Source of the DNA: Heptranchias perlo
Lineage: Eukaryota
Direction: 5' to 3'
NCBI RefSeq assembly: GCF_035084215.1
Contig: NW_027138483.1
Span: forward strand, 310,001 to 374,000
Length of the DNA: 64,000 nt
Below, one piece after another: positions 10,411 to 46,719 of this stretch; positions within the stretch are counted from its first letter, which is position 1, and each line of letters opens with the position of its first letter. The notes beneath the pieces were generated by a model, which worked only from the letters and a program-made list of their open reading frames with translations, was not told where the DNA came from and ran no database searches. A program made the position numbers and the translations under genes.

Positions 10411-10411
10411 A

Positions 10412-14337: not shown

Positions 14338-14419
14338 TGTAGGAATCCCTTCCATTGCCTCAGCTGTACACTGGTCAGAGTCGTGTCAGGTCCTGGAGAT
14401 TTATCTATTCTCACAGAAA

Positions 14420-15731
14420 ATGGGGCAACCAACTATTCTGCTGATAAAACAGATTTACTACCCGATTCTCGCAGCCGTCCGTGTCCCAGGTGAGCCGTTG
14501 TAACCTGTTTCTTGTCAATCTGTGTTAACTGTATCACTGTTCTTATTGCATGATCGATAAGGTAACGTTTTTCCCAAACGTCAGCGTTTCAGTGGATTTC
14601 GTGACCGTCTTGTCTCCCCGTGCAGAGTGAGCGCTGCAGCAGCTCATTATAATGTGTGGGTCGGTTTCCAAAGGTAGTGACTCGAATATTAATCCTGCTC
14701 TCACACTGGTCCGTGTTGATAATCACACCGAATGGAGCAAAATGCTTTCAACAGGTATCTCCACATATATTTCAAACAGTGGAATATTATTTCTCTCCTC
14801 TCTCTTTCTTACAGCGAACTTGATGACAATTGTGATTCTCTCCCGAGAAAACTGCGGCCTTTCCAAGTGTATCTCTGTCTACATGGTGGCCATGGCAACA
14901 GGAGATCTACTGGTCATGATCATCAATATTATAGTTTATTATATTTTCAATTATCACTTCCCACTTTCATTCCTCTCCAACACTCCCGTGTGTAGGTTCA
15001 TTCTATACATGACTGTTATCGCCCTCGATTTGTCTGTTTGGTTCACCGTCTCCTTCACATTTGACCGTTTTGTTGCTCTCTGCTGCCAGAAGTTTAAAAA
15101 CAAGTATTGCAACGAGAGAACTGCGGCCGCGGTTATAACAACGGTCTCGTTTCTGATCTTTTTAAAGGACATCCCCTTTTTTTTTGCATTTGAGCCTCAC
15201 CACATAATTAACAAAGTGCAGTGGGGCTGCCGGCCAAGAGTGGCAATTTTCTCCTCCCCTCAAGGTGCAACGTACGTCTGGTTTCACGTCATCTCGCTCA
15301 TTTGTCTTCCTTTTTCATTGATTGCCTTGTTTAATTATTTGACCATCAGACGGATTTTAGTGGCTAATAGAAAGCGCAGGGGTCTGCGGGGACACAGCAG
15401 TGAGAATCAGTGTGATCCAGAGATGGAGAACCGAATGAAATCCATCATTTTACTCTTCACTGTGTCGGGCAGTTTTATACTGTTGTGGCTGACAGCTCTA
15501 GTGACTTTTGTAAGCACCGGACTGTCAAACCCCAATTATTACCGAGGTGACCACACAAACCCAGGATATATCGCCACCGAAGCCGGAGCTATGCTGAAGC
15601 ATTTGAGTTCCTGTCCAAACACCTGTATTTATGCAGCTACCCAGAGGAAATTGAGAGAAGAGCTGAAGAAGCTGCTGAAATCTCCCTGGACACTGATTCT
15701 AAGATTGGTTGGAACACGAACTCCGAACTAG
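14420..15731 (+). CDS. GPR139/GPR142-like class A orphan GPCR, copy A. Exon 1 14420-14489, exon 2 14815-15731, 328 aa
   Basis: Exon 1 MGQPTILLIKQIYYPILAAVRVP ends CAG|GTGAGC. A polypyrimidine tract and ACAG acceptor end at 14814. The phase-1 splice restores VP-ANLMTIVILS (TM1). Seven hydrophobic segments, AMATGD, DRF, Cys pair PVC/WGC, FILLW, NTCIY, helix 8. Confidence 0.92.
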
Positions 15732-17059
15732 ACCTCCCTTTGGAACATTAGAATTCAGTTTTAGCACCAATTCTATCTTAGACTGGGGTTCCCTCTCCTA
15801 ACAGATTATTTAATGACGGTTCTTGTAAAAACTCACAGGTACGCGATTATATTTCCTGCACTTTATAGAATCTAGCGCCAACTTTGACCGCGGGTTTCGA
15901 CAGTTCATTGGCCGACTGACTCCTGACAAATAAGGACAGTCCCCCTTAAGTATGAAAAGTGTCAGTGATGTAGTGAACTTTATTAGTGGAATAGAATATT
16001 TGATCAACGAGTTTAATATCACTGTGCGAGGAATGTAATTCAATTCTACCGTGTAATTGACAGGAAGATACATCAGTTTTCGGTAAAGATTCGATCGTTT
16101 CGAATTCCTGGTGAATTTACTTTTTCTCGGAGGTTTGATGAACACGGTGCTTGGACTGACGTCAGCTGCACCGACCGCTTCATCCTTCTCCAGTGAATAA
16201 GGAGCGGAGCCGCTGTCTCGTTCGCAGTGCTGCGAGGTTTCACCATTTTTGAATGTTAACAGTTGTTGCCTTGTTCGATCTGCTTTTTCTGAAATCTCGA
16301 TTAATGAGAAATATTTGAAGGCTGTCCAGCAACATTAAAAATAAAGTCTTTACCTGTTGTCACTAAATGTATCTGACTGTTACTAATCTGAATCAGCGAT
16401 CCGGTAAAACTGGTAAAATAATGTAAGAACCAAGAATGTAAAATAACCTTCATAATCAGGTAATTTGTTGCATCGTTCTGCAATGAATGCTCTCATATAT
16501 TGGAATGGAATAATCCGCTCTGTGTGTTGATGCACAGATGCACATGTAATATCCCCTGCCCTTGGATCAAATGGTGTTGTTTGGGCATCCCAGTGCGAGG
16601 CTGTGCATTCGGAGTTCCGACCGGTCACACTGCAGACCGGGGTTTGAGAGCGTTGCCCGGTGCAAAGGTATCAGATGAAGACTTGTGCCAATTAACTGGC
16701 AATTCGTCCGCCCGCCTGTTTCTGTGTCTCGGATGAAACTGTTTCCCGATTTATCCTAATTGGTGCAAATTTCAGGGATTCTGTGACGCGTCACCAATTC
16801 TATTCAGGAGCTCGTGCATCTTTCACTCCTTGAAGTTTGTTTGTTCAGCAGTTAGATTTTAATTTTACAGTTCAAAGATAACAAATAAATCGCTAATATT
16901 GATATTTACTATTTAATTGTTGTAGCTTTTATTAGTCTGCTGGGCGTCAGCGCTGGGCACTGATTTTCTTCCCTTTAATATAACGTAAAATTTTCCAGAC
17001 TGCGCTCCGCCCAGGCGAGGTTTAAAGACCAGGTGATAAATACAAACATTTCCCCCTCC

Positions 17060-20000
17060 ATTTTTAACCATTTTAATATTGTGGGGTAAGACTGCCCACC
17101 ATATCTTCCTCACATTAAAATCATAGTATCGTAGAATCATCGTATTGTACAGCACAGGTGGATGCCGTTCGGCCCATCCTGCCGGTTCTTTGAAAGAGCT
17201 ATCCAATAAGTCTCATTCCCCGGCTCTTTCCCCATACCACTGCACAATGTTCCCAGCAAGTATTTATCCAATTCCCTTTTGAAAGTTACCATTGAAGCTG
17301 TTTTCACCACCCTTTCATCCAGTGCATTCCAGATCATTACAATTCTCTGCGTAAATTTCTCATGTGTCGTCTGGTTACCCACCCTTTCCGGCCCAACGAG
17401 GAAGGAGGCATTGCTGGATCTGGTTCTGGGGAATGAGATGGGTCAAGTGGAGCAAGTGTCAGTGAGGGAACATTTAGGGAACAGTGATCATAGTATCATA
17501 AGGTTTAGATTAGTTATGGAAAAGGAAAAGGACCAATCTGGAAAAAAATACTTAATTGGAGGAGGGCAAAATTCAGTGGCTTGAGAAGGAACCTGGCCCG
17601 GGTAAATTGGAATCAAAGATTGGCAGGCAAATATGTAATCGAACAATGGGCGGCCCTTAAAGAGGAGATGATTCAGGTAGTCTAAGTACATTCCCACGAG
17701 GGGAGAAAGGTAGGGCAACTAAATCCGGAGCTCCCTGGAGGATGAATGAGATCGAGAGTAAGATGAAGCTGAAAAAAGTGGGCGTATGACAGATGTCAGG
17801 TTGATAATACAAGTGAGAACCAGGCTGAATATATAAAGTTCAGAGGAGAAGTGAAAATGGAAATAAGAGGGGCAAAGAGAGATTATGACAATAGACTGGC
17901 GGCTAACATAAAAGTGAATCCAAAAGACTTCTATCGGCATGTAAACATCAAACGGGTAGTAAGAGGAGGTGTGCGGCCAATTAAGAACCAAGTCTGTACT
18001 TTCCCTTCGATTTCATGGGCTTGAATCGTAGCTAACAGTCTCTTACGTGGGACCGTATCAAATGCCTTCTGGAAGTGCATACAAATTACATCCATTGACA
18101 TTCCCCTGTCCACTACTTTAGTCACCTCTTCAAAAAATTCAATCAGGTTTGTCAGGCACGATATACATTTCACAAATCCATGCTGGCTCCCTCTGATTAA
18201 CTGAAAATTCTCGAGGTGTTCAGTCGCCCTATCCTTAATTTTCAACTCCGGCATTTTCCCCACAACAGATGTTAGGCTAACTGGTCTATAATTTCCTGTT
18301 TTCCCTCTCTCTCCTTTCTTAAAAACCGGAGTGACATATGCAATTTTCCAATCTAGAGGGACATTTCCTGAATCTGGAGAACTTTGAAAGATTATAGTTA
18401 GGACATCTTCAATCTGCTCACCTATTCCCTTTAAAACCCTGGGATGGAAATCATCTGGTCCTGGGGATTTGTCACTCTTTAGTGATATTATTTTCTTAAT
18501 TTCTGTTGCTTTACTTATGTTAATTTTATCGAGTCCGTCTCCCCGATTCAATATAAGTTTTGTTGGGATTTCCGGCATGCTATCCTCTTTTACTACTCTA
18601 AATACTGATGCAAAGTAATTATTCATCATGTCTGCCATTTCCCCATTGTCAATGACAATATCCCCACTTTCAATTTTTAAGGGGCCAACACTGCTCCTGA
18701 TCACCTTATTTTTCATAATGTAACTATAAAGATTCTTTGTTTTGGTTTGATATCACTTGCAAGTTTCTTTTCATACTCTCTTTTTGTAGCTCTTACCATC
18801 TGTTTTGTGGCCCTTTGTTGATCTTTGTATCTTTCCCAATCGCCAGGATCTGTGCTATTTTTTGCCATTTATATGCCCTTTCCTTATGTCTTATACTGTC
18901 CCTCACCTCTTTAGTTGCCCATGGCTGTTTTATTTTGGCAAGTAGAGTTCTTGCCCCTCAGGGGTATAAACCGATTCTGTATCACGTTAAATGTGTCTTT
19001 AAACATTTCGCACTGATCATTGGTCGTTTTACCCATTAACAGATTTGCCCAGTTTACTGTGGACAGTCTCTCTCTCATCCCATTGAAATCGGCCTTACCC
19101 AAGTCTAGAATCTGAGCAGCTGATTCACTTTTTTCCCTTTCAAACACTACCTTGAACTCGATCATGTTATGATCGCTATTGGATAGATGTTCGCGTACAG
19201 TTAAGCCGTTAACTAAATTTGGTTCATTACTCATTACTAAATCTAGCATGGCTTGCCCCCTTGTTGCCTCTAGGACATACTGCACATGCACTCCAAGGCC
19301 TCTCACTTCCTCTAACCGTCTCAATATATTCCTGTTTACTGCGTATTCCCTTTTACTGTTTGCCCTCCCTAAGTGCATTACCTCACACTTCTCCGGGTTG
19401 AACTCCATTTGCCACTTTTCCACCCACTCCACCAACCCATTAATATCTTCTTGGATTCGACAGCTATCCTCTTCACTATCAACTGCAACGCCAATTTTTG
19501 TGTCTTCTGCCAATATTCCAACCGTGTCCTCTATATTCAAACCCAATTAATTAATATGTACCACAAACAGCAAGGAACACAAAACTGAGCCCCGTGGCAC
19601 ACCACTGGAAACGGATTCACATTCGCAAAGACATCCATCGACTTTTACCCTTTGTTTCCTGTTACTGAGCTAATTTTGCAACCAATTTGACACGTTTCCC
19701 TGTATCCCATGGGCTTTTACCTTTCTGACCAGTCTGCCATGTGGAACCTTGTGAAATGCCTTAGTAAAATCAATGTAGACAATATCCACTATACTACCGT
19801 CATCAATCCTCCTTGTCACTTCCTCAAATAATTCAATCAGGTTTGTAAGGCATGACCTTCCCTGAACAAATCCTTGCTGACTATCCCTGATTAAACCATG
19901 CCTTTCCAAGTGACAGTTTAACCTATCTCTCAGTATTGATTCTAATCGTTTGACCACCACCGAGGTAAGACTGACCGGCCTATAATTGTTGGCCTTTCCC

Positions 20001-21630
20001 TTGTACCCTTTTTAAACAATGGTACTACGTTTGCAGTCTTCCAGTCCTCCGGTACCTCCCCTGTATATAGTGAGGATTGGAAAATGATGCTCAGAGCATC
20101 TTTTATTTCCTGCCTGGTTTCCTTCAATAGCCTAGGAAACAATGCACCCGGACCTAGTGACTTATCAACTTGCAAGGATTCCAGTCCTTCTAGTGCTTTC
20201 TCTCTCGTTATGTTTACCTTATCCAATGTTTCATACCGCTCCTCTTTAACTTCTACGTCCGGATCATCCCTTTCTTTTGTGAATACGGAGACAACATATT
20301 CATTTAAAACCCTGCTCACATCTTCTGCGTCTGCACATACGTTACCCTTATCATCCCTGATAAGTTCCACCTTTTCCTTAGCTATCCTCTTGTTCTTAAT
20401 ATACTAATACAACATCTTTGGATTTTCTTTAATCTTACTAGCTAATATTTGTTCATGCCCTCTCTTTGCATTCCTTATTTCCCTTTTTACGTCATCCCTG
20501 TATTTTCTATGCTCCTCTCGGCTTTCCGCAGTATGAAGCTGTCATAAGCTTTCTTTTTCTGCTTTATCTTGCCCCGTATGCTTCCAGACAACTACACGGC
20601 TCTAAATTTGGCAGTGCCATACCTTTTCCTTTGAGGGGACGTGTCTGCATTGTACCCATAGAATTTCACTTTTTCGTGCCAACCACCGGCTTGCCACTGA
20701 GTTCTCCTCAAGTAGTTGTGTCCAGTCCACTTCTGCCAAATCACCTCTTAGTTCTGCAAAATTTGCCTTCCCCCCAATTTAAAACGTTTGCTTCTAATTT
20801 AACTCTGTCCTTTTCCATAATAATGCTAAAACTAACTGAATTTTCATCACTATCCCCAATATGGTCACCCAGTATCACTTCACCCACTTGCCTATCTTCA
20901 TTTCACAGGATTCAATCTAGAATTGCATCCCCTCTTGTTGGGCTTGTCACGTAGTGGCTAAAAAAAGTTCTCCTGGACACATATAAAGAATTTTAGGCCC
21001 TCTGTGCCCCTCACACTGTTTGAATCCAAATTGATGTTAGGGTAGTTGAAGTCCCCTACTATTATTGCCCTCTTATTTTTGAACTCAGTAATTTGCCTAT
21101 ATCTTTGTTTTTCTATCTCCCTTTCGCTATTCGGGGGTTGATAGCACACTCCTAGTGTTGTGACTGTAACCTTTCTTATTTCTTAGTTCAACCCATACGA
21201 CCTTGATTGATGATCCATTTCGCATATCAACCCTTCTCACAACTGTAATTGAATATTTAACCAATAATGCTGCCACCCCTCCTTTTTAATACCCACTCTA
21301 TCCTGCCTGAAAACTCGATATCCACAGATATTGAGCTGCCAATTATCCCCCTCTTTAAACCAGGTTATAGCAATGATATCATGCTGCCACGTGTCGATCT
21401 GTGCCCTTAGCTCGTCTGCTTTGTTTGTAATACTCATTGCATCGAAGTATATACCCTTTAACCCCGTCGAATTCCTGTGCTGAACACAATTTAAACTTTG
21501 CTTCCTCGGCCTTTCTGAGTCGCTGACGACGTCACTAACTGCTTTTCTACTGGTCTGAATTTGTCCTATTATTACCTGGCTTTGGTTCCCATCCCCCTGC
21601 TATACTAGTTTAAACCCTCCGCAAAATAAG
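17060..21630 (-). mobile_element. Cluster of nested or abutting CR1 fragments: - strand 3' end 17060-17375; + strand 17385-17990; - strand 17990-19285; - strand 19285-21630
   Basis: Repeated LDLV, SDH, GDFN, NYRPVSLTS, SCLTNLIE and WQMEFNPEKC motifs in different frames and orientations. Confidence 0.88.
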
Positions 21631-21639
21631 TAACAAATG

Positions 21640-22645
21640 CCCCCTATAGTAACTTCGCTGGTGGTGACGCGATACTAACTTCACAGTTAGTGGCCCGATA
21701 CTAACTTCATTGGTGATGACCCTATACTAAGTTCGCTGTTAGGGGCCCTATACTAACTTCATTGGTGGTGACCCTATACTAAATTCGCTGTTAGGGGCCC
21801 GATACTAACTTCATTGGTGGTGACCCTACATCAACTTCACTGGTGGTGACTATACTAAATTTACTGTTGGGGTCATATACTAACTTCACTGTTGGTGGCC
21901 CTATACTAACTTCATTGGTGATGACCCAATAGCAACTTCACTGGTGGTGACTCCATACAAAATTCACTGTTGGGGTCATATACTAACTTCACTGTTAGGG
22001 GCGCTATACTAACTTCACTAGTGGTGACCCTATACTATCTTCACTGGTGACCTTACACTAACTTCACTAGTGGTGACCCTATACTATCTTCACTGGTGAC
22101 CTTACACTAACTTCACTGGTGGTGACCCTATTCTAACTTCACTGGTGTTGACTCCAACGAACTTCCCTGGTGGTGATCCGATACTAACTTCCATATGGTA
22201 ACCCGACATTAACTTCACTGATATTCTCACCACACTAAATTCACTGGTGGTGACGTTATACTCAATACATTGGTGGTGAAACTATACTAAAGTCACTGGT
22301 GGAGATCCAATATTAAATTCACTGGTGGTCACCCCAGCCCAACTTCACTGGTGGTGACTCTGTACTAAATTCACTGTTAGGGGCCCTATACTATCTTCAC
22401 TGTTAGGGGCACTATCCCAAATTCACTGGTGGTGACCCTATACTCAATTCACTTGTGATGACCCTGCACTAAATTTACTGGTGGTGACCCGATACTCTCT
22501 TCACTGGTGGTGTCCCGATACTCTCTTCACTGGTGGTGACCGTATACTAACTTCACTGGTGGTGACCCTATACTAACTTCACTGGTGGTGACCCTATAGT
22601 AACTTCACTGGTGGTGACCCTATATTAACTTCACTGGTGGTGACG
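21640..22645. repeat. 26-bp minisatellite, roughly 38 units
   Basis: Unit ctatactaacttcactggtggtgacc; ggtgaccc at 22561 and 22587. Confidence 0.95.
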
Positions 22646-22914
22646 TTCTTCAAACATTACTGTTATTATTGCTTTCTCACATTGCTGCTGATTATTCCGT
22701 ATTCCCACTATATTCGTAATGACATTACTGCTGCTGATTATGATACAAGTTTCAACACCTGGTACCTCAAGCGTCCGCTGCTAAAAAAACACATAAATGC
22801 CTTTATTACTTGCTTGCTCGATTGAGACAAAGATGTCCTCGCCAACCCCCGTCACCCCATGAACTCAAGATCCTCAAAACCATTACTATTTGTAACATAT
22901 TCTGGCGAAAAGTG

Positions 22915-25280
22915 CTCATAGTATCATAATGTCATAGTAGGTCCAGCACAGAAGGAGGCCATTCAGCCCTTCGTCCCTGTGCTGGCGCTTTGAAAAAGCT
23001 ATCCAATTAATCCCATCCCTCTGATCTTTCCCCACAGCTCCGTATTTTTTTCCATTCAAGTATTTATCCAATTCCCTTTTAAAAGTTACTTCTGAATCTG
23101 TTTCCAGCACTCTTTCTGACAATGCATTCCAGATCATTACAACTTCCTGCAAAAAATATCCTCATTTCGCCTCTGGCTCTTTCACTGATCACCTTATAGC
23201 CGTGTCCTCTGTTTCCTAACCTTCTGCCACTGGAAACAGTTACACTTTATTTATTTAATCAAAACCGTTCATGATTTTGAACACCTCTACCAAATATCCC
23301 CTAACTTTCCCTGCTGTAAGGTGAGCAACCACAGATTCTCCAGTCTCCCCACATATATGAAGTCCCTCATCCCTGGAACCTTTCTTGTAAATCTCTTCTA
23401 TACCCATTCCAAGGCCTGACATCTTTCCTAAAGTGTGGTACCCAAAATTGAACACAATACTCCAGCTGAGGCCTAACCAGTGTTTTATAGAGGTTTAACA
23501 TAACTTCCCTGCTTTTGTACTCTATGCCTCTGTTGTTAACGTCCAGGATCCCGTATGCTTTTTAACAACCTTCTCAACTTGTCCTGCCGCGTTCAAAGAT
23601 ATTTATTCCCCGTTCTCTCTGCTCCTGCACCTTATTGGAGCTCCAGATTTTCACTTCGTAGGAACCTATCGACTCTGTACCCCAATCCATTCCTCCTTGA
23701 AGGCAGCCCTTTGTTCAATTGCTGCTTTGCCTCCCAATTTGTGATTCCAATCCACATCAACGAGATCGCTTTTCAACTCACTGAAATTTGTCTTCCTGCA
23801 GTTAAGTTTTTTTTTAGATTTGATTGTTCCTTGTCCTTTTCCATAACGATTCTAAACCTAAGGATATTATGATCACTGTTCCCCAAATGCTCCCCCACTG
23901 GGTTTGGCTGGAGACATATTGATCCAGAAGTTTCTCTTGTACACATTTCAGGAATTCCTCCCCCTCTTCGCCCTTTACACTTGTATTGTCCCAGTCTATA
24001 GTTGGATAATTGAAGTGCCCCATTATTATTACATAAGAACATAGCAACATAATAAATAGGAGCAGGAGTAGGCCATACGGCCCCTCAAGCCTGCTCCACA
24101 ATTGAGTAAGATCATGGTTAATCTTCGACCTCAACTCCACTTTCCCGCTCGATCTCCATATCCCTTGATTCCGCTAGAGTCCAAAAAGCTATCTCACTCA
24201 GCCTTGAATATCCGCAACGAGTGAGCATCCACAGCCCTCTGTGGTATAGAATTCCAAATGATCTCGATCCCCTGAGTGAAGAAATTGCTCCACAACTCAG
24301 TCCTAAACGTCCCACCCCTTATCTTGAGACTATGCCCTCTCGTTCTGGACTCTCCAGCCAGGGGAATCATTCTGTCTACCCTGTCAAGCTCTCTTAAAAT
24401 ATTATACGTTTCAAAGAGATCATTCTTCTAAACCCCAGAGAGTGTAGGCCAAATCGAGTCAATCTTTCTTCATAGGACAACACTCTCATCCCAGGAATTA
24501 ATCGAGTGAACCTTCGCTGCACCGCCTCTAAGGCTTCTATCCTTCCTTAGGTAAGGAAACTAAAACTGCCTACAATACTATAGGTGTGGTCTCAACAAAG
24601 CCTTGTACAATTGCAGCAAGACCTCCTTACTATTGTACTCCAAACCCCTTGCAATAAAAGCCCACATACTATTTGCCTTCCTAATTGCGTGCTGTACCTG
24701 CATGTTAAATTTCTGTGTTTCTTGTACCAGGACACCCAAATCCCGCTCAACACCAACATTTAATACTTTTCCACCATTTAACAAATATTCAGTTTTTCTC
24801 TTCTTACTACCAAAATGAATAACCTCACATTTCTCCACATTATACTCCATCTGCCAACTTCTTGCCCACTCACTTAACCTGCCGATATCCCTTTGCAGAC
24901 CATTTGCAGTCCTCCTCAAAGCTTACTTTCTCAGCTAGCTTTATATCGTCAGTAAACTTGGATACATTACTCTCGGTCCCTTTATCTGAGCTATTAATAT
25001 AAATTGTAAATAGCTGAGGCCCAAGCACTGATCCCTGCAGCCACCCATTAGTTACAGCCTGCCAACCTGAGAATGACCCGTTTATTCCTACTCTCTGTTT
25101 TCTCTCCTTTAATCAATCCTCTATCCATGCTAATATATTACCCCCAACCCCATGAGCCATTACCTTGTGTAACTACCCGTTGTGACTCACCTTATCGAAT
25201 GTCTTTTGAAAATTCATGTATACTACAATGGGCCGAATGGCATTCTCCTGTTCTGTACCTACTATCACACTAAGTCACTA
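22915..25280 (-). mobile_element. CR1 fragments: two - strand 3' ends with tails at ~22915 and ~24030, plus a short + strand tail at 25226-25280
   Basis: WQMEYNVEKCEVIHFG, LYKALLRPHL, NSDHNILRF and CR1-type 3' UTRs. Confidence 0.85.
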
Positions 25281-25284
25281 AAAT

Positions 25285-26095
25285 GCATCTAGTGTAATTG
25301 TAGGGTGCCACCAGTAACGGTGGAGCGAGGTTTTCTCTAGTGTATGTGTGGTATTCCATGAGTCTCAGAGGAGCACAGTTATCTGGTGTAAGTGTGGTAT
25401 ACCATGAGTACCTGAGGAGCGCGGATATCTCTCGTGTAAGCATGGTATACCATGAATACCTGATGAGCGCGGTTATCTCTCGTGTGTGTGTGGTATACCA
25501 TGAGTACCTGAGAAGCGCGGTTATCTCTCGTGTAAGTGTTGTATACCATGAGTACACGAGGAGCACAGTTATCACTAGTGTTTGTGTGGTATACCATGAG
25601 TACCTGAGGATCGCGGTTATCTCGAGTGTAAGTGTGGTATACCATGAGTATCTGAGGCACGCGGATATCTCTAGTGTAAGGGTTACCACAAGTACAGGAG
25701 GAGCACGGTCACATCTAATGTAAGTGTAGGGGCACCACTATTACCGGAGGAGCACGGTCACCTCTATTGTAAGTGTAGGGGACCCACTAGAACCGGAGTA
25801 GCACGGTCACCTCTATTGTAAGTGTAGGGGCACCACTAGTACAGGAGGAGCACGGTCATCTCTATTGTAAGTGTAGGGGTACCACTGGAACCGGAGGAGC
25901 ACGGTCACCTCTATTGTAAGTGTAGGGGACCCACTAGTACAGGAGGAGCACAGTCACCTCTATTGTAAGTGTAGGGGACCCACTAGTACAGGAGGAGCAC
26001 GGTCACCTCTATTGTAAGTGTAGGGGACCCACTAGTACAGGAGGAGCACGGTCACCTCTATTGTAAGTGTAGGGGCACCACTAGTACCGGAGAAG
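25285..26095. repeat. 48/49-bp satellite directly upstream of the gene B promoter
   Basis: 48-bp tataccatgagta units followed by 49-bp units (attgtaag at 25962, 26011, 26060). Confidence 0.92.
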
Positions 26096-26407
26096 GGTGA
26101 TCAGGTTTAATGCTGCAAGACTGAGGTCATCACCAGTATTGCAGGATTAGGTTCCGCACCTGTTGCTGGTGGAGTTGGGTCACCGGGAGTGAGTCTAAGG
26201 CAAGGTCAGGGCGATTACTTCAAATGTAGCTGCCTCCACCAGTCCTGTAGTTATAGGGTCAGGACGAGTATTGGGAGATTCACACTTTCCATTTGTAAAG
26301 AATGTTTTAAATGTGTGATTTTTTAAACTGTCCACTAATAATTCCAGACCAAAAAAGAACTTCCCTTAGTCTATTTGACTGTGAGCAATGTTAATTATGA
26401 TGTAACC

Positions 26408-26442
26408 TGATTGACTCCCTGGTGAATTGATATGGGTATAAA
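26408..26442 (+). promoter_or_regulatory. Putative core promoter of gene B (TATAAA 26437-26442)
   Basis: Same motif order and spacing as the gene A promoter. Confidence 0.55.
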
Positions 26443-26524
26443 TATAGTGATCCCTTCTCCCGTCTCAGCCAGGCACTAGTCAGAGACATTCAGCTCCGAC
26501 AGAATTCATCCATTCTCACAGAAA

Positions 26525-30040: not shown

Positions 30041-30042
30041 TT

Positions 30043-34614: not shown

Positions 34615-34696
34615 TTTCTGTGAGAATGGATGAATTCTGTCGGAGCTGAATGTCTCTGACTAGTGCCTGGCTGAGACGGGAGAAGGGATCACTATA

Positions 34697-34731
34697 TTTA
34701 TACCCATATCAATTCACCAGGGAGTCAATCA
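34697..34731 (-). promoter_or_regulatory. Putative core promoter of B'
   Basis: tttata at 34697-34702; mirror of the B promoter. Confidence 0.55.
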
Positions 34732-35043
34732 GGTTACATCATAATTAACATTGCTCACAGTCAAATAGACTAAGGGAAGTTCTTTTTTGGTCTGGAATTA
34801 TTAGTGGACAGTTTAAAAAATCACACATTTAAAACATTCTTTACAAATGGAAAGTGTGAATCTCCCAATACTCGTCCTGACCCTATAACTACAGGACTGG
34901 TGGAGGCAGCTACATTTGAAGTAATCGCCCTGACCTTGCCTTAGACTCACTCCCGGTGACCCAACTCCACCAGCAACAGGTGCGGAACCTAATCCTGCAA
35001 TACTGGTGATGACCTCAGTCTTGCAGCATTAAACCTGATCACC

Positions 35044-35854
35044 CTTCTCCGGTACTAGTGGTGCCCCTACACTTACAATAGAGGTGACCGTGCTCCTCCT
35101 GTACTAGTGGGTCCCCTACACTTACAATAGAGGTGACCGTGCTCCTCCTGTACTAGTGGGTCCCCTACACTTACAATAGAGGTGACTGTGCTCCTCCTGT
35201 ACTAGTGGGTCCCCTACACTTACAATAGAGGTGACCGTGCTCCTCCGGTTCCAGTGGTACCCCTACACTTACAATAGAGATGACCGTGCTCCTCCTGTAC
35301 TAGTGGTGCCCCTACACTTACAATAGAGGTGACCGTGCTACTCCGGTTCTAGTGGGTCCCCTACACTTACAATAGAGGTGACCGTGCTCCTCCGGTAATA
35401 GTGGTGCCCCTACACTTACATTAGATGTGACCGTGCTCCTCCTGTACTTGTGGTAACCCTTACACTAGAGATATCCGCGTGCCTCAGATACTCATGGTAT
35501 ACCACACTTACACTCGAGATAACCGCGATCCTCAGGTACTCATGGTATACCACACAAACACTAGTGATAACTGTGCTCCTCGTGTACTCATGGTATACAA
35601 CACTTACACGAGAGATAACCGCGCTTCTCAGGTACTCATGGTATACCACACACACACGAGAGATAACCGCGCTCATCAGGTATTCATGGTATACCATGCT
35701 TACACGAGAGATATCCGCGCTCCTCAGGTACTCATGGTATACCACACTTACACCAGATAACTGTGCTCCTCTGAGACTCATGGAATACCACACATACACT
35801 AGAGAAAACCTCGCTCCACCGTTACTGGTGGCACCCTACAATTACACTAGATGC
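35044..35854. repeat. 48/49-bp satellite (mirror copy)
   Basis: Reverse complement of 25285-26095. Confidence 0.92.
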
Positions 35855-35858
35855 ATTT

Positions 35859-38224
35859 TAGTGACTTAGTGTGATAGTAGGTACAGAACAGGAGAATGCC
35901 ATTCGGCCCATTGTAGTATACATGAATTTTCAAAAGACATTCGATAAGGTGAGTCACAACGGGTAGTTACACAAGGTAATGGCTCATGGGGTTGGGGGTA
36001 ATATATTAGCATGGATAGAGGATTGATTAAAGGAGAGAAAACAGAGAGTAGGAATAAACGGGTCATTCTCAGGTTGGCAGGCTGTAACTAATGGGTGGCT
36101 GCAGGGATCAGTGCTTGGGCCTCAGCTATTTACAATTTATATTAATAGCTCAGATAAAGGGACCGAGAGTAATGTATCCAAGTTTACTGACGATATAAAG
36201 CTAGCTGAGAAAGTAAGCTTTGAGGAGGACTGCAAATGGTCTGCAAAGGGATATCGGCAGGTTAAGTGAGTGGGCAAGAAGTTGGCAGATGGAGTATAAT
36301 GTGGAGAAATGTGAGGTTATTCATTTTGGTAGTAAGAAGAGAAAAACTGAATATTTGTTAAATGGTGGAAAAGTATTAAATGTTGGTGTTGAGCGGGATT
36401 TGGGTGTCCTGGTACAAGAAACACAGAAATTTAACATGCAGGTACAGCACGCAATTAGGAAGGCAAATAGTATGTGGGCTTTTATTGCAAGGGGTTTGGA
36501 GTACAATAGTAAGGAGGTCTTGCTGCAATTGTACAAGGCTTTGTTGAGACCACACCTATAGTATTGTAGGCAGTTTTAGTTTCCTTACCTAAGGAAGGAT
36601 AGAAGCCTTAGAGGCGGTGCAGCGAAGGTTCACTCGATTAATTCCTGGGATGAGAGTGTTGTCCTATGAAGAAAGATTGACTCGATTTGGCCTACACTCT
36701 CTGGGGTTTAGAAGAATGATCTCTTTGAAACGTATAATATTTTAAGAGAGCTTGACAGGGTAGACAGAATGATTCCCCTGGCTGGAGAGTCCAGAACGAG
36801 AGGGCATAGTCTCAAGATAAGGGGTGGGACGTTTAGGACTGAGTTGTGGAGCAATTTCTTCACTCAGGGGATCGAGATCATTTGGAATTCTATACCACAG
36901 AGGGCTGTGGATGCTCACTCGTTGCGGATATTCAAGGCTGAGCGAGATAGCTTTTTGGACTCTAGCGGAATCAAGGGATATGGAGATCGAGCGGGAAAGT
37001 GGAGTTGAGGTCGAAGATTAACCATGATCTTACTCAATTGTGGAGCAGGCTTGAGGGGCCGTATGGCCTACTCCTGCTCCTATTTATTATGTTGCTATGT
37101 TCTTATGTAATAATAATGGGGCACTTCAATTATCCAACTATAGACTGGGACAATACAAGTGTAAAGGGCGAAGAGGGGGAGGAATTCCTGAAATGTGTAC
37201 AAGAGAAACTTCTGGATCAATATGTCTCCAGCCAAACCCAGTGGGGGAGCATTTGGGGAACAGTGATCATAATATCCTTAGGTTTAGAATCGTTATGGAA
37301 AAGGACAAGGAACAATCAAATCTAAAAAAAAACTTAACTGCAGGAAGACAAATTTCAGTGAGTTGAAAAGCGATCTCGTTGATGTGGATTGGAATCACAA
37401 ATTGGGAGGCAAAGCAGCAATTGAACAAAGGGCTGCCTTCAAGGAGGAATGGATTGGGGTACAGAGTCGATAGGTTCCTACGAAGTGAAAATCTGGAGCT
37501 CCAATAAGGTGCAGGAGCAGAGAGAACGGGGAATAAATATCTTTGAACGCGGCAGGACAAGTTGAGAAGGTTGTTAAAAAGCATACGGGATCCTGGACGT
37601 TAACAACAGAGGCATAGAGTACAAAAGCAGGGAAGTTATGTTAAACCTCTATAAAACACTGGTTAGGCCTCAGCTGGAGTATTGTGTTCAATTTTGGGTA
37701 CCACACTTTAGGAAAGATGTCAGGCCTTGGAATGGGTATAGAAGAGATTTACAAGAAAGGTTCCAGGGATGAGGGACTTCATATATGTGGGGAGACTGGA
37801 GAATCTGTGGTTGCTCACCTTACAGCAGGGAAAGTTAGGGGATATTTGGTAGAGGTGTTCAAAATCATGAACGGTTTTGATTAAATAAATAAAGTGTAAC
37901 TGTTTCCAGTGGCAGAAGGTTAGGAAACAGAGGACACGGCTATAAGGTGATCAGTGAAAGAGCCAGAGGCGAAATGAGGATATTTTTTGCAGGAAGTTGT
38001 AATGATCTGGAATGCATTGTCAGAAAGAGTGCTGGAAACAGATTCAGAAGTAACTTTTAAAAGGGAATTGGATAAATACTTGAATGGAAAAAAATACGGA
38101 GCTGTGGGGAAAGATCAGAGGGATGGGATTAATTGGATAGCTTTTTCAAAGCGCCAGCACAGGGACGAAGGGCTGAATGGCCTCCTTCTGTGCTGGACCT
38201 ACTATGACATTATGATACTATGAG
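35859..38224 (+). mobile_element. CR1 fragments (mirror copy)
   Basis: Reverse complement of 22915-25280. Confidence 0.85.
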
Positions 38225-38493
38225 CACTTTTCGCCAGAATATGTTACAAATAGTAATGGTTTTGAGGATCTTGAGTTCATGGGGTGACGGGGGTTGGCGA
38301 GGACATCTTTGTCTCAATCGAGCAAGCAAGTAATAAAGGCATTTATGTGTTTTTTTAGCAGCGGACGCTTGAGGTACCAGGTGTTGAAACTTGTATCATA
38401 ATCAGCAGCAGTAATGTCATTACGAATATAGTGGGAATACGGAATAATCAGCAGCAATGTGAGAAAGCAATAATAACAGTAATGTTTGAAGAA

Positions 38494-39499
38494 CGTCACC
38501 ACCAGTGAAGTTAATATAGGGTCACCACCAGTGAAGTTACTATAGGGTCACCACCAGTGAAGTTAGTATAGGGTCACCACCAGTGAAGTTAGTATACGGT
38601 CACCACCAGTGAAGAGAGTATCGGGACACCACCAGTGAAGAGAGTATCGGGTCACCACCAGTAAATTTAGTGCAGGGTCATCACAAGTGAATTGAGTATA
38701 GGGTCACCACCAGTGAATTTGGGATAGTGCCCCTAACAGTGAAGATAGTATAGGGCCCCTAACAGTGAATTTAGTACAGAGTCACCACCAGTGAAGTTGG
38801 GCTGGGGTGACCACCAGTGAATTTAATATTGGATCTCCACCAGTGACTTTAGTATAGTTTCACCACCAATGTATTGAGTATAACGTCACCACCAGTGAAT
38901 TTAGTGTGGTGAGAATATCAGTGAAGTTAATGTCGGGTTACCATATGGAAGTTAGTATCGGATCACCACCAGGGAAGTTCGTTGGAGTCAACACCAGTGA
39001 AGTTAGAATAGGGTCACCACCAGTGAAGTTAGTGTAAGGTCACCAGTGAAGATAGTATAGGGTCACCACTAGTGAAGTTAGTGTAAGGTCACCAGTGAAG
39101 ATAGTATAGGGTCACCACTAGTGAAGTTAGTATAGCGCCCCTAACAGTGAAGTTAGTATATGACCCCAACAGTGAATTTTGTATGGAGTCACCACCAGTG
39201 AAGTTGCTATTGGGTCATCACCAATGAAGTTAGTATAGGGCCACCAACAGTGAAGTTAGTATATGACCCCAACAGTAAATTTAGTATAGTCACCACCAGT
39301 GAAGTTGATGTAGGGTCACCACCAATGAAGTTAGTATCGGGCCCCTAACAGCGAATTTAGTATAGGGTCACCACCAATGAAGTTAGTATAGGGCCCCTAA
39401 CAGCGAACTTAGTATAGGGTCATCACCAATGAAGTTAGTATCGGGCCACTAACTGTGAAGTTAGTATCGCGTCACCACCAGCGAAGTTACTATAGGGGG
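38494..39499. repeat. 26-bp minisatellite (mirror copy)
   Basis: Unit ggtcaccaccagtgaagttagtatag. Confidence 0.95.
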
Positions 39500-39508
39500 C
39501 ATTTGTTA

Positions 39509-42500
39509 CTTATTTTGCGGAGGGTTTAAACTAGTATAGCAGGGGGATGGGAACCAAAGCCAGGTAATAATAGGACAAATTCAGACCAGTAGAAAAGCAG
39601 TTAGTGACGTCGTCAGCGACTCAGAAAGGCCGAGGAAGCAAAGTTTAAATTGTGTTCAGCACAGGAATTCGACGGGGTTAAAGGGTATATACTTCGATGC
39701 AATGAGTATTACAAACAAAGCAGACGAGCTAAGGGCACAGATCGACACGTGGCAGCATGATATCATTGCTATAACCTGGTTTAAAGAGGGGGATAATTGG
39801 CAGCTCAATATCTGTGGATATCGAGTTTTCAGGCAGGATAGAGTGGGTATTAAAAAGGAGGGGTGGCAGCATTATTGGTTAAATATTCAATTACAGTTGT
39901 GAGAAGGGTTGATATGCGAAATGGATCATCAATCAAGGTCGTATGGGTTGAACTAAGAAATAAGAAAGGTTACAGTCACAACACTAGGAGTGTGCTATCA
40001 ACCCCCGAATAGCGAAAGGGAGATAGAAAAACAAAGATATAGGCAAATTACTGAGTTCAAAAATAAGAGGGCAATAATAGTAGGGGACTTCAACTACCCT
40101 AACATCAATTTGGATTCAAACAGTGTGAGGGGCACAGAGGGCCTAAAATTCTTTATATGTGTCCAGGAGAACTTTTTTTAGCCACTACGTGACAAGCCCA
40201 ACAAGAGGGGATGCAATTCTAGATTGAATCCTGTGAAATGAAGATAGGCAAGTGGGTGAAGTGATACTGGGTGACCATATTGGGGATAGTGATGAAAATT
40301 CAGTTAGTTTTAGCATTATTATGGAAAAGGACAGAGTTAAATTAGAAGCAAACGTTTTAAATTGGGGGGAAGGCAAATTTTGCAGAACTAAGAGGTGATT
40401 TGGCAGAAGTGGACTGGACACAACTACTTGAGGAGAACTCAGTGGCAAGCCGGTGGTTGGCACGAAAAAGTGAAATTCTATGGGTACAATGCAGACACGT
40501 CCCCTCAAAGGAAAAGGTATGGCACTGCCAAATTTAGAGCCGTGTAGTTGTCTGGAAGCATACGGGGCAAGATAAAGCAGAAAAAGAAAGCTTATGACAG
40601 CTTCATACTGCGGAAAGCCGAGAGGAGCATAGAAAATACAGGGATGACGTAAAAAGGGAAATAAGGAATGCAAAGAGAGGGCATGAACAAATATTAGCTA
40701 GTAAGATTAAAGAAAATCCAAAGATGTTGTATTAGTATATTAAGAACAAGAGGATAGCTAAGGAAAAGGTGGAACTTATCAGGGATGATAAGGGTAACGT
40801 ATGTGCAGACGCAGAAGATGTGAGCAGGGTTTTAAATGAATATGTTGTCTCCGTATTCACAAAAGAAAGGGATGATCCGGACGTAGAAGTTAAAGAGGAG
40901 CGGTATGAAACATTGGATAAGGTAAACATAACGAGAGAGAAAGCACTAGAAGGACTGGAATCCTTGCAAGTTGATAAGTCACTAGGTCCGGGTGCATTGT
41001 TTCCTAGGCTATTGAAGGAAACCAGGCAGGAAATAAAAGATGCTCTGAGCATCATTTTCCAATCCTCACTATATACAGGGGAGGTACCGGAGGACTGGAA
41101 GACTGCAAACGTAGTACCATTGTTTAAAAAGGGTACAAGGGAAAGGCCAACAATTATAGGCCGGTCAGTCTTACCTCGGTGGTGGTCAAACGATTAGAAT
41201 CAATACTGAGAGATAGGTTAAACTGTCACTTGGAAAGGCATGGTTTAATCAGGGATAGTCAGCAAGGATTTGTTCAGGGAAGGTCATGCCTTACAAACCT
41301 GATTGAATTATTTGAGGAAGTGACAAGGAGGATTGATGACGGTAGTATAGTGGATATTGTCTACATTGATTTTAGTAAGGCATTTCACAAGGTTCCACAT
41401 GGCAGACTGGTCAGAAAGGTAAAAGCCCATGGGATACAGGGAAACGTGTCAAATTGGTTGCAAAATTAGCTCAGTAACAGGAAACAAAGGGTAAAAGTCG
41501 ATGGATGTCTTTGCGAATGTGAATCCGTTTCCAGTGGTGTGCCACGGGGCTCAGTTTTGTGTTCCTTGCTGTTTGTGGTACATATTAAGTAATTGGGTTT
41601 GAATATAGAGGACACGGTTGGAATATTGGCAGAAGACACAAAAATTGGCGTTGCAGTTGATAGTGAAGAGGATAGCTGTCGAATCCAAGAAGATATTAAT
41701 GGGTTGGTGGAGTGGGTGGAAAAGTGGCAAATGGAGTTCAACCCGGAGAAGTGTGAGGTAATGCACTTAGGGAGGGCAAACAGTAAAAGGGAATACGCAG
41801 TAAACAGGAATATATTGAGACGGTTAGAGGAAGTGAGAGGCCTTGGAGTGCATGTGCAGTATGTCCTAGAGGCAACAAGGGGGCAAGCCATGCTAGATTT
41901 AGTAATGAGTAATGAACCAAATTTAGTTAACGGCTTAACTGTACGCGAACATCTATCCAATAGCGATCATAACATGATCGAGTTCAAGGTAGTGTTTGAA
42001 AGGGAAAAAAGTGAATCAGCTGCTCAGATTCTAGACTTGGGTAAGGCCGATTTCAATGGGATGAGAGAGAGACTGTCCACAGTAAACTGGGCAAATCTGT
42101 TAATGGGTAAAACGACCAATGATCAGTGCGAAATGTTTAAAGACACATTTAACGTGATACAGAATCGGTTTATACCCCTGAGGGGCAAGAACTCTACTTG
42201 CCAAAATAAAACAGCCATGGGCAACTAAAGAGGTGAGGGACAGTATAAGACATAAGGAAAGGGCATATAAATGGCAAAAAATAGCACAGATCCTGGCGAT
42301 TGGGAAAGATACAAAGATCAACAAAGGGCCACAAAACAGATGGTAAGAGCTACAAAAAGAGAGTATGAAAAGAAACTTGCAAGTGATATCAAACCAAAAC
42401 AAAGAATCTTTATAGTTACATTATGAAAAATAAGGTGATCAGGAGCAGTGTTGGCCCCTTAAAAATTGAAAGTGGGGATATTGTCATTGACAATGGGGAA

Positions 42501-44079
42501 ATGGCAGACATGATGAATAATTACTTTGCATCAGTATTTAGAGTAGAAAAAGAGGATAGCATGCCGGAAATCCCAACAAAACTTATATTGAATCGGGGAG
42601 ACGGACTCGATAAAATTAACATAAGTAAAGCAACAGAAATGAAGAAAATAATATCACTAAAGAGTGACAAATCCCCAGGACCAGATGATTTCCATCCCAG
42701 GGTTTTAAAGGGAATAGGTGAGCAGATTGAAGATGTCCTAACTATAATCTTTCAAAGTTCTCCAGATTCAGGAAATGTCCCTCTAGATTGGAAAATTGCA
42801 TATGTCACTCCGGTTTTTAAGAAAGGAGAGAGAGGGAAAACAGGAAATTATAGACCAGTTAGCCTAACATCTGTTGTGGGGAAAATGCCGGAGTTGAAAA
42901 TTAAGGATAGGGCGACTGAACACCTCGAGAATTTTCAGTTAATCAGAGGGAGCCAGCATGGATTTGTGAAATGTATATCGTGCCTGACAAACCTGATTGA
43001 ATTTTTTGAAGAGGTGACTAAAGTAGTGGACAGGGGAATGTCAATGGATGTAATTTGTATGCACTTCCAGAAGGCATTTGATACGGTCCCACGTAAGAGA
43101 CTGTTAGCTACGATTCAAGCCCATGAAATCGAAGGGAAAGTACAGACTTGGTTCTTAATTGGCCGCACACCTCCTCTTACTACCCGTTTGATGTTTACAT
43201 GCCGATAGAAGTCTTTTGGATTCACTTTTATGTTAGCCGCCAGTCTATTGTCATAATCTCTCTTTGCCCCTCTTATTTCCATTTTCACTTCTCCTCTGAA
43301 CTTTATATATTCAGCCTGGTTCTCACTTGTATTATCAACCTGACATCTGTCATACGCCCACTTTTTTCAGCTTCATCTTACTCTCGATCTCATTCATCCT
43401 CCAGGGAGCTCCGGATTTAGTTGCCCTACCTTTCTCCCCTCGTGGGAATGTACTTAGACTACCTGAATCATCTCCTCTTTAAGGGCCGCCCATTGTTCGA
43501 TTACATATTTGCCTGCCAATCTTTGATTCCAATTTACCCGGGCCAGGTTCCTTCTCAAGCCACTGAATTTTGCCCTCCTCCAATTAAGTATTTTTTTCCA
43601 GATTGGTCCTTTTCCTTTTCCATAACTAATCTAAACCTTATGATACTATGATCACTGTTCCCTAAATGTTCCCTCACTGACACTTGCTCCACTTGACCCA
43701 TCTCATTCCCCAGAACCAGATCCAGCAATGCCTCCTTCCTCGTTGGGCCGGAAAGGGTGGGTAACCAGACGACACATGAGAAATTTACGCAGAGAATTGT
43801 AATGATCTGGAATGCACTGGATGAAAGGGTGGTGAAAACAGCTTCAATGGTAACTTTCAAAAGGGAATTGGATAAATACTTGCTGGGAACATTGTGCAGT
43901 GGTATGGGGAAAGAGCCGGGGAATGAGACTTATTGGATAGCTCTTTCAAAGAACCGGCAGGATGGGCCGAACGGCATCCACCTGTGCTGTACAATACGAT
44001 GATTCTACGATACTATGATTTTAATGTGAGGAAGATATGGTGGGCAGTCTTCCCCCACAATATTAAAATGGTTAAAAAT
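39509..44079 (+). mobile_element. Nested CR1 fragment cluster (mirror copy)
   Basis: Reverse complement of 17060-21630. Confidence 0.88.
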
Positions 44080-45407
44080 GGAGGGGGAAATGTTTGTATT
44101 TATCACCTGGTCTTTAAACCTCGCCTGGACGGAGCGCAGTCTGGAAAATTTTACGTTATATTAAAGGGAAGAAAATCAGTGCCCAGCGCTGACGCCCAGC
44201 AGACTAATAAAAGCTACAACAATTAAATAGTAAATATCAATATTAGCGATTTATTTGTTATCTTTGAACTGTAAAATTAAAATCTAACTGCTGAACAAAC
44301 AAACTTCAAGGAGTGAAAGATGCACGAGCTCCTGAATAGAATTGGTGACGCGTCACAGAATCCCTGAAATTTGCACCAATTAGGATAAATCGGGAAACAG
44401 TTTCATCCGAGACACAGAAACAGGCGGGCGGACGAATTGCCAGTTAATTGGCACAAGTCTTCATCTGATACCTTTGCACCGGGCAACGCTCTCAAACCCC
44501 GGTCTGCAGTGTGACCGGTCGGAACTCCGAATGCACAGCCTCGCACTGGGATGCCCAAACAACACCATTTGATCCAAGGGCAGGGGATATTACATGTGCA
44601 TCTGTGCATCAACACACAGAGCGGATTATTCCATTCCAATATATGAGAGCATTCATTGCAGAACGATGCAACAAATTACCTGATTATGAAGGTTATTTTA
44701 CATTCTTGGTTCTTACATTATTTTACCAGTTTTACCGGATCGCTGATTCAGATTAGTAACAGTCAGATACATTTAGTGACAACAGGTAAAGACTTTATTT
44801 TTAATGTTGCTGGACAGCCTTCAAATATTTCTCATTAATCGAGATTTCAGAAAAAGCAGATCGAACAAGGCAACAACTGTTAACATTCAAAAATGGTGAA
44901 ACCTCGCAGCACTGCGAACGAGACAGCGGCTCCGCTCCTTATTCACTGGAGAAGGATGAAGCGGTCGGTGCAGCTGACGTCAGTCCAAGCACCGTGTTCA
45001 TCAAACCTCCGAGAAAAAGTAAATTCACCAGGAATTCGAAACGATCGAATCTTTACCGAAAACTGATGTATCTTCCTGTCAATTACACGGTAGAATTGAA
45101 TTACATTCCTCGCACAGTGATATTAAACTCGTTGATCAAATATTCTATTCCACTAATAAAGTTCACTACATCACTGACACTTTTCATACTTAAGGGGGAC
45201 TGTCCTTATTTGTCAGGAGTCAGTCGGCCAATGAACTGTCGAAACCCGCGGTCAAAGTTGGCGCTAGATTCTATAAAGTGCAGGAAATATAATCGCGTAC
45301 CTGTGAGTTTTTACAAGAACCGTCATTAAATAATCTGTTAGGAGAGGGAACCCCAGTCTAAGATAGAATTGGTGCTAAAACTGAATTCTAATGTTCCAAA
45401 GGGAGGT

Positions 45408-46719
45408 CTAGTTCGGAGTTCGTGTTCCAACCAATCTTAGAATCAGTGTCCAGGGAGATTTCAGCAGCTTCTTCAGCTCTTCTCTCAATTTCCTCTGGGT
45501 AGCTGCATAAATACAGGTGTTTGGACAGGAACTCAAATGCTTCAGCATAGCTCCGGCTTCGGTGGCGATATATCCTGGGTTTGTGTGGTCACCTCGGTAA
45601 TAATTGGGGTTTGACAGTCCGGTGCTTACAAAAGTCACTAGAGCTGTCAGCCACAACAGTATAAAACTGCCCGACACAGTGAAGAGTAAAATGATGGATT
45701 TCATTCGGTTCTCCATCTCTGGATCACACTGATTCTCACTGCTGTGTCCCCGCAGACCCCTGCGCTTTCTATTAGCCACTAAAATCCGTCTGATGGTCAA
45801 ATAATTAAACAAGGCAATCAATGAAAAAGGAAGACAAATGAGCGAGATGACGTGAAACCAGACGTACGTTGCACCTTGAGGGGAGGAGAAAATTGCCACT
45901 CTTGGCCGGCAGCCCCACTGCACTTTGTTAATTATGTGGTGAGGCTCAAATGCAAAAAAAAAGGGGATGTCCTTTAAAAAGATCAGAAACGAGACCGTTG
46001 TTATAACCGCGGCCGCAGTTCTCTTGTTGCAATACTTGTTTTTAAACTTCTGGCAGCAGAGAGCAACAAAACGGTCAAATGTGAAGGAGACGGTGAACCA
46101 AACAGACAAATCGAGGGCGATAACAGTCATGTATAGAATGAACCTACACACGGGAGTGTTGGAGAGGAATGAAAGTGGGAAGTGATAACTGAAAATATAA
46201 TAAACTATAATATTGATGATCATGACCAGTAGATCTCCTGTTGCCATGGCCACCATGTAGACAGAGATAAACTTGGAAAGGCCGCAGTTTTCTCGGGAGA
46301 GAATCACAATTGTCATCAAGTTCGCTGTAAGAAAGAGAGAAGAGAGAAATAATATTCCACTGTTTGAAATATATGTGGAGATACCTGTTGAAAGCATTTT
46401 GCTCCATTCGGTGTGATTATCAACACGGACCAGTGTGAGAGCAGGATTAATATTCGAGTCACTACCTTTGGAAACCGACCCACACATTATAATGAGCTGC
46501 TGCAGCGCTCACTCTGCACGGGGAGACAAGACGGTCACGAAATCCACTGAAACGCTGACGTTTGGGAAAAACGTTACCTTATCGATCATGCAATAAGAAC
46601 AGTGATACAGTTAACACAGATTGACAAGAAACAGGTTACAACGGCTCACCTGGGACACGGACGGCTGCGAGAATCGGGTAGTAAATCTGTTTTATCAGCA
46701 GAATAGTTGGTTGCCCCAT
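45408..46719 (-). CDS. GPR139/GPR142-like GPCR, copy A'. Exon 1 46719-46650, exon 2 46324-45408, 328 aa
   Basis: Mirror of A with C42F, N69S and E124K; splice sites intact. Confidence 0.92.

Follow-up and report, generated by a model that had tools for sequence, protein, structure and literature searches.

A GPR139-related receptor family of about 3,000 loci in a shark genome assembly and four of its members in Heptranchias perlo

Receptor genes of the window and the inverted repeat that carries them

The stretch of DNA analysed here (the window) comprises 64,000 nucleotides of the Heptranchias perlo assembly GCF_035084215.1 (contig NW_027138483.1, positions 310,001 to 374,000) and carries four intact two-exon genes for putative class A G-protein coupled receptors (GPCRs), named A, B, B' and A', on the two arms of an inverted repeat. 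The genes belong to a family of cartilaginous fishes. We hold with very high confidence, for all of the following points jointly, that this family is very large, that it arose separately from GPR139, that it has spread by segmental duplication, that about one third of its copies are broken, and that it is under purifying selection on the inside and changes fast on the outside. The features of the window are as follows.

Gene A, 14420..15731, plus strand: exon 1 14420-14489, exon 2 14815-15731; 325-nt GT-AG intron; predicted class A GPCR of 328 amino acids
Gene B, 26525..27962, plus strand: exon 1 26525-26594, exon 2 27043-27962; 448-nt intron; 329 amino acids
Gene B', 33177..34614, minus strand: mirror copy of B with identical coding sequence
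Gene A', 45408..46719, minus strand: mirror copy of A with C42F, N69S and E124K
TATAAA, 14332..14337, plus strand: 88 nt upstream of the gene A ATG
TATAAA, 26437..26442, plus strand: 88 nt upstream of the gene B ATG
Left arm of the inverted repeat, 1..28142, plus strand: extends beyond the window
Spacer between the arms, 28143..32996, no strand: 4.85 kb
Right arm, to the limit of its pairing inside the window, 32997..60994, minus strand: 22 differences from the left arm

Each gene is interrupted by a GT-AG phase-1 intron within transmembrane helix 1 (TM1), and the products are 328-329 amino acids long. Genes A and B share 77% identity; A and A' differ at three nucleotides, all three non-synonymous, and B and B' at none. 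The spliced product of A' (46719-45408) agrees letter for letter with RefSeq protein P0325. The Pfam family 7tm_1 was matched with E-values of 5e-19 and 1e-19 (69 and 71 bits against a curated cut-off of 30.5). An earlier reading of this DNA from its letters alone, the first-pass annotation, had described several family copies here; four intact genes are indeed present, although they represent only two paralogues, A and B, mirrored on the inverted repeat, and not four independent ones.

An AlphaFold model of the A' product, built with a 146-sequence alignment, showed seven helices, helix 8 and a beta-hairpin in extracellular loop 2 (ECL2) at a mean predicted local distance difference test score (pLDDT) of 87.7; an earlier model of exon 2 with 32 sequences (pLDDT 51.5) was set aside. 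The class A core switches N1.50, D2.50, R3.50, P5.50, F6.44, W6.48, N7.49 and Y7.53 were present and Y5.58 was absent. Judged by sequence and modelled fold, the window genes are class A (rhodopsin-like) GPCRs.

The short N-terminus without a glycosylation sequon noticed at first reading was found again, with 12 residues ahead of the TM1 YYP and a modelled helix from residue 5. It is probably real, since the TATAAA element is positioned alike in the two genes and in-frame stop codons lie between TATAAA and the ATG, or just before, in genes A and B. The element was found at -88 to -91 in nine of the 13 genes shown, which were drawn from two distant subfamilies. An in-frame ATG within the intron of gene B (335-amino-acid open reading frame) was considered as the start and rejected, being out of frame in A, while exon 1 is conserved. 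A 48-49-bp satellite (window 25322-26070 and its mirror) is joined to gene B as a 79-residue N-terminus in RefSeq models P0011 and P0317; given the TATA box and the in-frame stop upstream of the gene B ATG, this extension is likely an annotation artefact. Ahead of the TATA box, the window's subfamily has a conserved TGATTGACTCCCTGG block (window 14300-14340 and 26405-26445), which we take to resemble TALE-homeodomain and EBF/Olf-1 sites. EBF is active in olfactory neurons and in B cells alike.

The arms are 99.9% identical, with 22 differing sites in about 24.4 kb outside the satellite at 6.6-10.3 kb, and the axis about which A and B are mirrored lies near 30,570. Four inverted units, each about 45 kb long, alternate along 248,454-426,413 of this contig (C316), and the window occupies the central part of this array. 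Divergence among the four units is 0.1-0.4%, and one of them is a 95-98% mosaic; the outer copies have their own deletion, frameshift or truncation, the outer B copies having a 4-codon deletion or being truncated. Because the four units differ from one another, a pure fold-back artefact is unlikely for the window; recent segmental duplication fits the array better than a single fold-back error would, and an arm identity of 99.9% is also within the allelic range. Among the run contigs over the window none bridged an arm-spacer junction, so the inverted orientation stands as assembled. The word depth of exact-match contigs was 46-52 in the flanks of B versus 5-7 in the spacer core (X1-X3), which is a hint only of real multi-copy arms.

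The units alternate head-to-head and tail-to-tail, and a third paralogue, accompanied by a partial inverted 3' fragment, lies at the two outer axes (295,900-296,820 and 384,174-385,094). The intergenic DNA (window 1-6300, 11000-12400, 17000-25000 and mirrors) contains 26/52-bp and 47-49-bp satellites and broken reverse-transcriptase/endonuclease reading frames, presumably of the long interspersed nuclear element (LINE) type.

Size, range and ancestry of the family

A protein search of this assembly (G000) scored 130 of 4,546 candidates. A degenerate TM3 motif gave 2,270 exact matches, or 3,345 with one mismatch allowed, and a degenerate TM7 motif gave 2,879; the reversed-pattern control of each search gave none, which together with the 7tm_1 scores excludes chance. 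On scaffold C2 the TM7 motif was also found in 45 of 52 TM3-matching loci, giving a union estimate of about 3,200. An open exon 2 was seen in 25 of 40 loci picked by TM3 and 14 of 20 picked by TM7 (65%, 95% confidence interval 52-77%), which corresponds to roughly 1,500-2,450 loci, and 133 clusters at 50% identity scored E<1e-30. The family thus has about 3,000 loci as counted in the assembly, and an estimated two thirds have an open main exon. The birth-and-death expansion supposed at first reading is borne out by these counts, and the outcome that only a few copies exist is ruled out by them. Listed matches clustered at the ends of chromosome-scale scaffolds (C2 at 0.1-7.0 Mb, C3 at 137.8-142.1 Mb, C13 at 0.14 Mb), with 96 loci lying in the initial 7 Mb of C2 (172 Mb). 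Inverted gene pairs were also found on C23 and C38.

The best 120 of 879 homologues all came from ten shark species, with 'probable G-protein coupled receptor 139' as the name of nearly every one; the ones closest to the window were from Heptranchias perlo itself. Further members were found in Callorhinchus, Leucoraja, Rhinoraja, Narcine and Chiloscyllium (chimaera, skates, electric ray and sharks), and subfamilies are common to different shark orders. The expansion is therefore not confined to the lineage of this shark, as had been supposed, but reaches chimaera, skates, electric ray and at least ten sharks; the family is both larger and older than first imagined. RefSeq labels its genes 'probable GPR139'. 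In keeping with its description as uncharacterised, no account of the expansion was found by a full-text literature search, whose coverage was without most subscription papers. No match for the family was present in 12 of the 24 supplements of a whale shark study (PMC8455134), nor did a term search match in PMC10620051 and one supplement of PMC10529500.

True GPR139 was found at a single locus (C25, 31.07 Mb), with an E-value of 1.8e-163 to the human structure chain versus 2.5e-6 for gene A, and one GPR142-like gene was found on C26 (57%). Two further single loci matching coelacanth and teleost orphans (C30 at 14.08 Mb, C5 at 114.75 Mb) probably correspond, by taxon range only, to the orphan receptors GPR210A/B that Rinne et al. 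(2019, PMC6504862) describe in coelacanth and ray-finned fishes. Trees were built from 49 and 31 proteins, the second with a mixture model; L094 and L096, whose extracted sequences were truncated, were left out. The family formed one clade (support 98/91, and 95/89 under the mixture model), and its sister clade (100/99) was a gene of which each amphibian, sturgeon or reedfish species showed a single copy. Grouping of the family with GPR139 was rejected by the approximately unbiased (AU) test (p-AU 0.0001) under a constraint that also separates GPR139 from GPR142, and the shark GPR210-like single loci grouped with the coelacanth and teleost proteins, apart from the family. The family is a cartilaginous-fish clade of separate origin from GPR139. 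The view that these are not GPR139 orthologues is upheld, and the expected separation from GPR139 and GPR142 was recovered, although the nearest relative proved to be the single-copy amphibian, sturgeon and reedfish gene. As rooted on two distant invertebrate-type outgroups, the family belongs to the wider clade of GPR139/142/210-related receptors.

The best PDB matches were GPR139 (E 1e-15 by profile), then peptide and chemokine receptors. No Pfam family of the OR, TAAR, V1R, V2R, T1R or T2R type matched the window proteins at E<=0.01, and none of these types is in the tree.

Conserved switches, variable pocket and selection

The motifs listed by the first-pass annotation (DRF, FILLWLT, CPNTCIY and a TM4 without tryptophan, with Ser at 4.50) are all present in the spliced proteins, and its GPR139-like TM1-TM2 pattern holds in the window genes except that the A copies have R.PAN where the pattern has Gly. 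This conserved TM1 Gly is Arg in all four A copies on C316 (window 14480-14482), and the helix-8 Phe is Leu in three of the four (window 15651-15653), the fourth having Y7.53 changed to His. The proposal that the motifs are distinctive did not survive. W4.50 and P7.50 were absent and N5.58 present in all 14 aligned members of the wider clade, GPR139 and amphioxus included; W4.50 and P7.50 are likewise absent from GPR142-like and GPR210-like receptors, and F3.51 and the short sequon-free N-terminus were also found in single-copy relatives. From these alignments, most of the departures from canonical motifs, and the short N-terminus with them, are a legacy of the wider GPR139 clade; what is derived in the family is only that P6.50 and the basic residue at 6.51 have been lost. 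Position 6.51 is Arg or Lys in nine of nine single-copy relatives and takes 11 different residues in the family. GPR139 itself signals with F7.50, and changing this residue to Pro nearly abolishes coupling (PMC8807744).

Conservation was scored over 58 distinct open copies, drawn from 84 loci plus gene B after 19 loci failed the open-frame filter and 8 duplicates were removed. D2.50, S3.39, R3.50, P5.50 and F6.44 were invariant in all 58, and W6.48, N7.49 and Y7.53 were kept in 57; switches and promoter spacing are the same even between subfamilies with no more than 43-53% identity. The GPR139 ligand contacts E3.32, F3.33 and R6.51 (PMC8807744) are replaced by T/A, V/T and A/T in genes A/B and are hypervariable in the 58 copies. 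As these contacts are not kept, sensing of Trp or Phe is not implied for the family, and the amino-acid or small-molecule ligand first proposed is unsupported.

Column entropy was 0.29-0.93 bits in intracellular segments versus 1.34-2.02 in extracellular ones and reached 2.8-3.0 bits at pocket positions 3.32, 5.43, 6.51 and 6.58. The ratio of non-synonymous to synonymous rates (omega) was 0.32 in the intracellular half and 0.78 outside it (0.35 and 0.76 in the window's subfamily), and intracellular omega differed from 1 with twice the log-likelihood difference (2dlnL) at 333, and at 49 among close paralogues. Allowing omega>1 in a site-class model gained a 2dlnL of 135, with about 12% of codons near omega 2, and all 21 codons with a posterior above 0.95 for omega>1 were among the 137 outward-lying codons of the 294. 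Purifying selection acts on the intracellular half, and the outer face changes fast.

Possible functions and comparison with known receptor systems

The family is large, clustered and subject to birth and death, with a diversifying pocket on a conserved G-protein face, as is found in chemoreceptor repertoires. We consider a birth-and-death chemoreceptor repertoire, probably for peptides, the best overall explanation, with the weight of evidence evenly poised. By this account one GPR139-related orphan receptor would have given rise to the cartilaginous-fish family of about 3,000 loci, the window genes being recent duplicates. Compact two-exon units with a TATA-bearing promoter have multiplied within satellite-rich clusters through duplication of segments, also in inverted orientation, and about one third of the copies decay, while selection holds the G-protein face and the outer face diversifies. 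Each copy may bind a ligand of its own, for which peptides present in the water or on the body surface are the likeliest candidates, and signalling may run via Gq/Gi, as it does for GPR139, in chemosensory cells of the nose or skin. Peptides are suggested by the disulfide-tied ECL2 hairpin, by loss of the E3.32/R6.51 pair and by neuropeptide-receptor ancestry, MIP/sex-peptide, FMRFamide, proctolin and myosuppressin receptors having a common origin with GPR139/142 (PMC8514136). That the family is a diversified ligand-detecting repertoire of some kind is probable. External chemosensation specifically falls a little short of an even chance; its fuller form, in which peptides are sensed in olfactory or skin cells via Gq/Gi, stands at or just under even and is ranked ahead of the immune, reproductive and passive readings below. 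Contigs from four sequencing runs, guessed to be RNA, matched the exon-2 region at a minimum of 80%; most belonged to other paralogues, and none lay over exon 1. They hint that the family is transcribed, if the runs are indeed RNA.

Several points weigh against a chemoreceptor repertoire of this size. The 60 sampled loci were limited to the chromosome-scale scaffolds C2, C3, C4, C10 and C13, and of the 39 open ones only 8 had an exon 1 that could be placed. Counts are inflated by assembly duplicates and haplotype copies: on C1317 the family matches recur at an offset of 3,999,424 bp (L130-L135), with no mismatch over 30 kb in three 10-kb pairs, probably a 4-Mb false duplication, and the C1510 and C1521 loci agree at 98.3-99.7%, a level that haplotype copies could show. 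A halved count would still be about 1,000. Over 28 hand-picked pocket codons mean omega was 0.70, not above 1, and in the 22-sequence subfamily only three of five flagged codons lay outside; the site model is simple and ignores synonymous-rate variation and gene conversion, which may inflate the omega>1 class. The A copies with private changes G21R (TM1) and F303L (helix 8) may be decaying. One individual is represented by three of the runs guessed to be RNA, and all three contained family contigs, a misfit to a nose-only family if these are different organs. No GPCR was among the 50 most specific genes of catshark brain and olfactory epithelium (PMC11979771), a weak negative since single receptors are lowly expressed.

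The pattern of selection would equally fit a host-pathogen arms race, in which the receptors would be innate-immune or barrier sensors on leukocytes, mast-like cells or epithelia for microbial, parasite or damage peptides, after the manner of MRGPR/FPR. Such a role is unlikely, though not negligibly so. The occurrence of family contigs in all three runs agrees with it, and the niche appears open in that cartilaginous fishes lack MAS1-related receptors (PMC8455134); yet the ancestry lies with neuropeptide-type and not chemoattractant receptors, and the label GPR139 was not found in one supplementary file of a nurse-shark spleen single-cell study, a nearly uninformative negative given its 4,750 characters. 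A total of about 2,000 germline loci would also far exceed known immune GPCR clusters. The four alternating inverted units around the window and the inverted pairs on C23 and C38 are what one would expect of ampliconic, palindrome-borne receptors acting in testis, sperm or reproductive tract in gamete or mate recognition; mammalian palindromic ampliconic genes are often testis-expressed, and the deep relatives include MIP/sex-peptide receptors (PMC8514136). We regard this as improbable, because the clusters are spread over many chromosomes and scaffolds and not one sex chromosome.

Marginally more improbable is passive amplification, whereby a few functional receptors would have been multiplied as passengers of subtelomeric DNA that is rich in satellites and prone to duplication, and further by assembly errors, with the majority of copies idle. 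It would account for the 35% of sampled loci that are broken, the clusters at the scaffold ends of C2, C3 and C13, the proven-looking false duplication on C1317 and the exclusively non-synonymous differences between A and A' (3/3). It is hard to reconcile with an omega of 0.32-0.35 on the intracellular half, close paralogues included, with switches and promoter spacing shared by distant subfamilies, or with 133 diverged clusters and subfamilies common to shark orders. The RefSeq label, taken with the best PDB match, would make the genes GPR139 orthologues or co-orthologues sensing L-Trp and L-Phe, an idea with very little left to it: orthology is refuted by the separate single GPR139 and GPR142-like loci, 21% identity and the AU test, E3.32 and R6.51 are not kept, and a disulfide joins C3.25 to ECL2 where GPR139 has Asp.

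Whatever its role, one class A family with about 3,000 loci and outward-facing positive selection contradicts the 'relative paucity' of GPCRs claimed for cartilaginous fishes (PMC8455134). These fishes have large olfactory organs with only 10-50 olfactory receptors (PMC10116579), or 20-62 olfactory receptor genes by another account, against a vertebrate maximum near 2,400 (PMC10869828). It is conceivable, though we would lean against it, that they have their own main chemoreceptor family, derived from a GPR139-related neuropeptide-type receptor and numbering 1,000-2,000 functional genes in some sharks. If so, it would equal the biggest mammalian odorant-receptor repertoires in size, would have been missed because surveys sought only OR, TAAR, V1R and V2R genes, and would account for the keen shark nose despite 20-62 known receptors. 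Expression in nose or skin would answer this old puzzle of keen smell with few receptors, and expression in leukocytes would mean a germline pattern-recognition repertoire of unusual size. For finding the ancestral ligand, the single-copy orthologue of amphibians is a practical starting point.

Among known systems, GPR139 and GPR142 are class A orphans activated by L-Trp, L-Phe and alpha-MSH. They (PDB 7VUG for comparison) share with the family the wider clade, a TM1 intron at the same A/N position, the lack of W4.50 and P7.50, N5.58, and the best match to a solved structure. They differ in being single-copy at separate loci and only 19-21% identical, and the family has DRF and the C3.25-ECL2 disulfide (Asp in GPR139) and lacks P6.50, E3.32, H3.37 and R6.51. 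The amphibian, sturgeon and reedfish orphan (XP_031757816.1, XP_069092602.1; auto-named 'probable GPR139') shares the short sequon-free N-terminus, the disulfide and a DPEM..RR.SI.LL stretch ahead of TM6; its best matches in the shark assembly are the family (35%), without a one-to-one counterpart. Unlike the family, it keeps P6.50 and K6.51, is about 70% identical across amphibians and returned one cluster per species, with no expansion in these searches; two word-limited searches returned no teleost or amniote member of it (P0211, P0281, P0297, P0328). The GPR210A/B groups are the next-nearest clades and likewise have a short N-terminus, one subgroup also lacking P6.50, but each has its own single orthologue in the shark. 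As to invertebrate MIP/srw-type receptors, PF10324 (Srw) is carried by the nearest Atlas clusters, although the two outgroups of this type are distant (about 21-22% identity); srw receptors are a chemoreceptor expansion from this clade, for which the literature search gave no paper. In its working the family may be likened to an odorant-receptor or MRGPR repertoire while belonging to none of these families. Like OR, TAAR, V1R, V2R, T2R and MRGPR/FPR genes, it shows clustered birth and death with many pseudogenes and a variable pocket on a conserved G-protein face, and its size is near that of the largest OR repertoires (2,278-2,399 complete genes, PMC10869828). It differs from them all in representing another GPCR lineage, with a coding intron in TM1 and 7tm_1 as its only Pfam match above cut-off.

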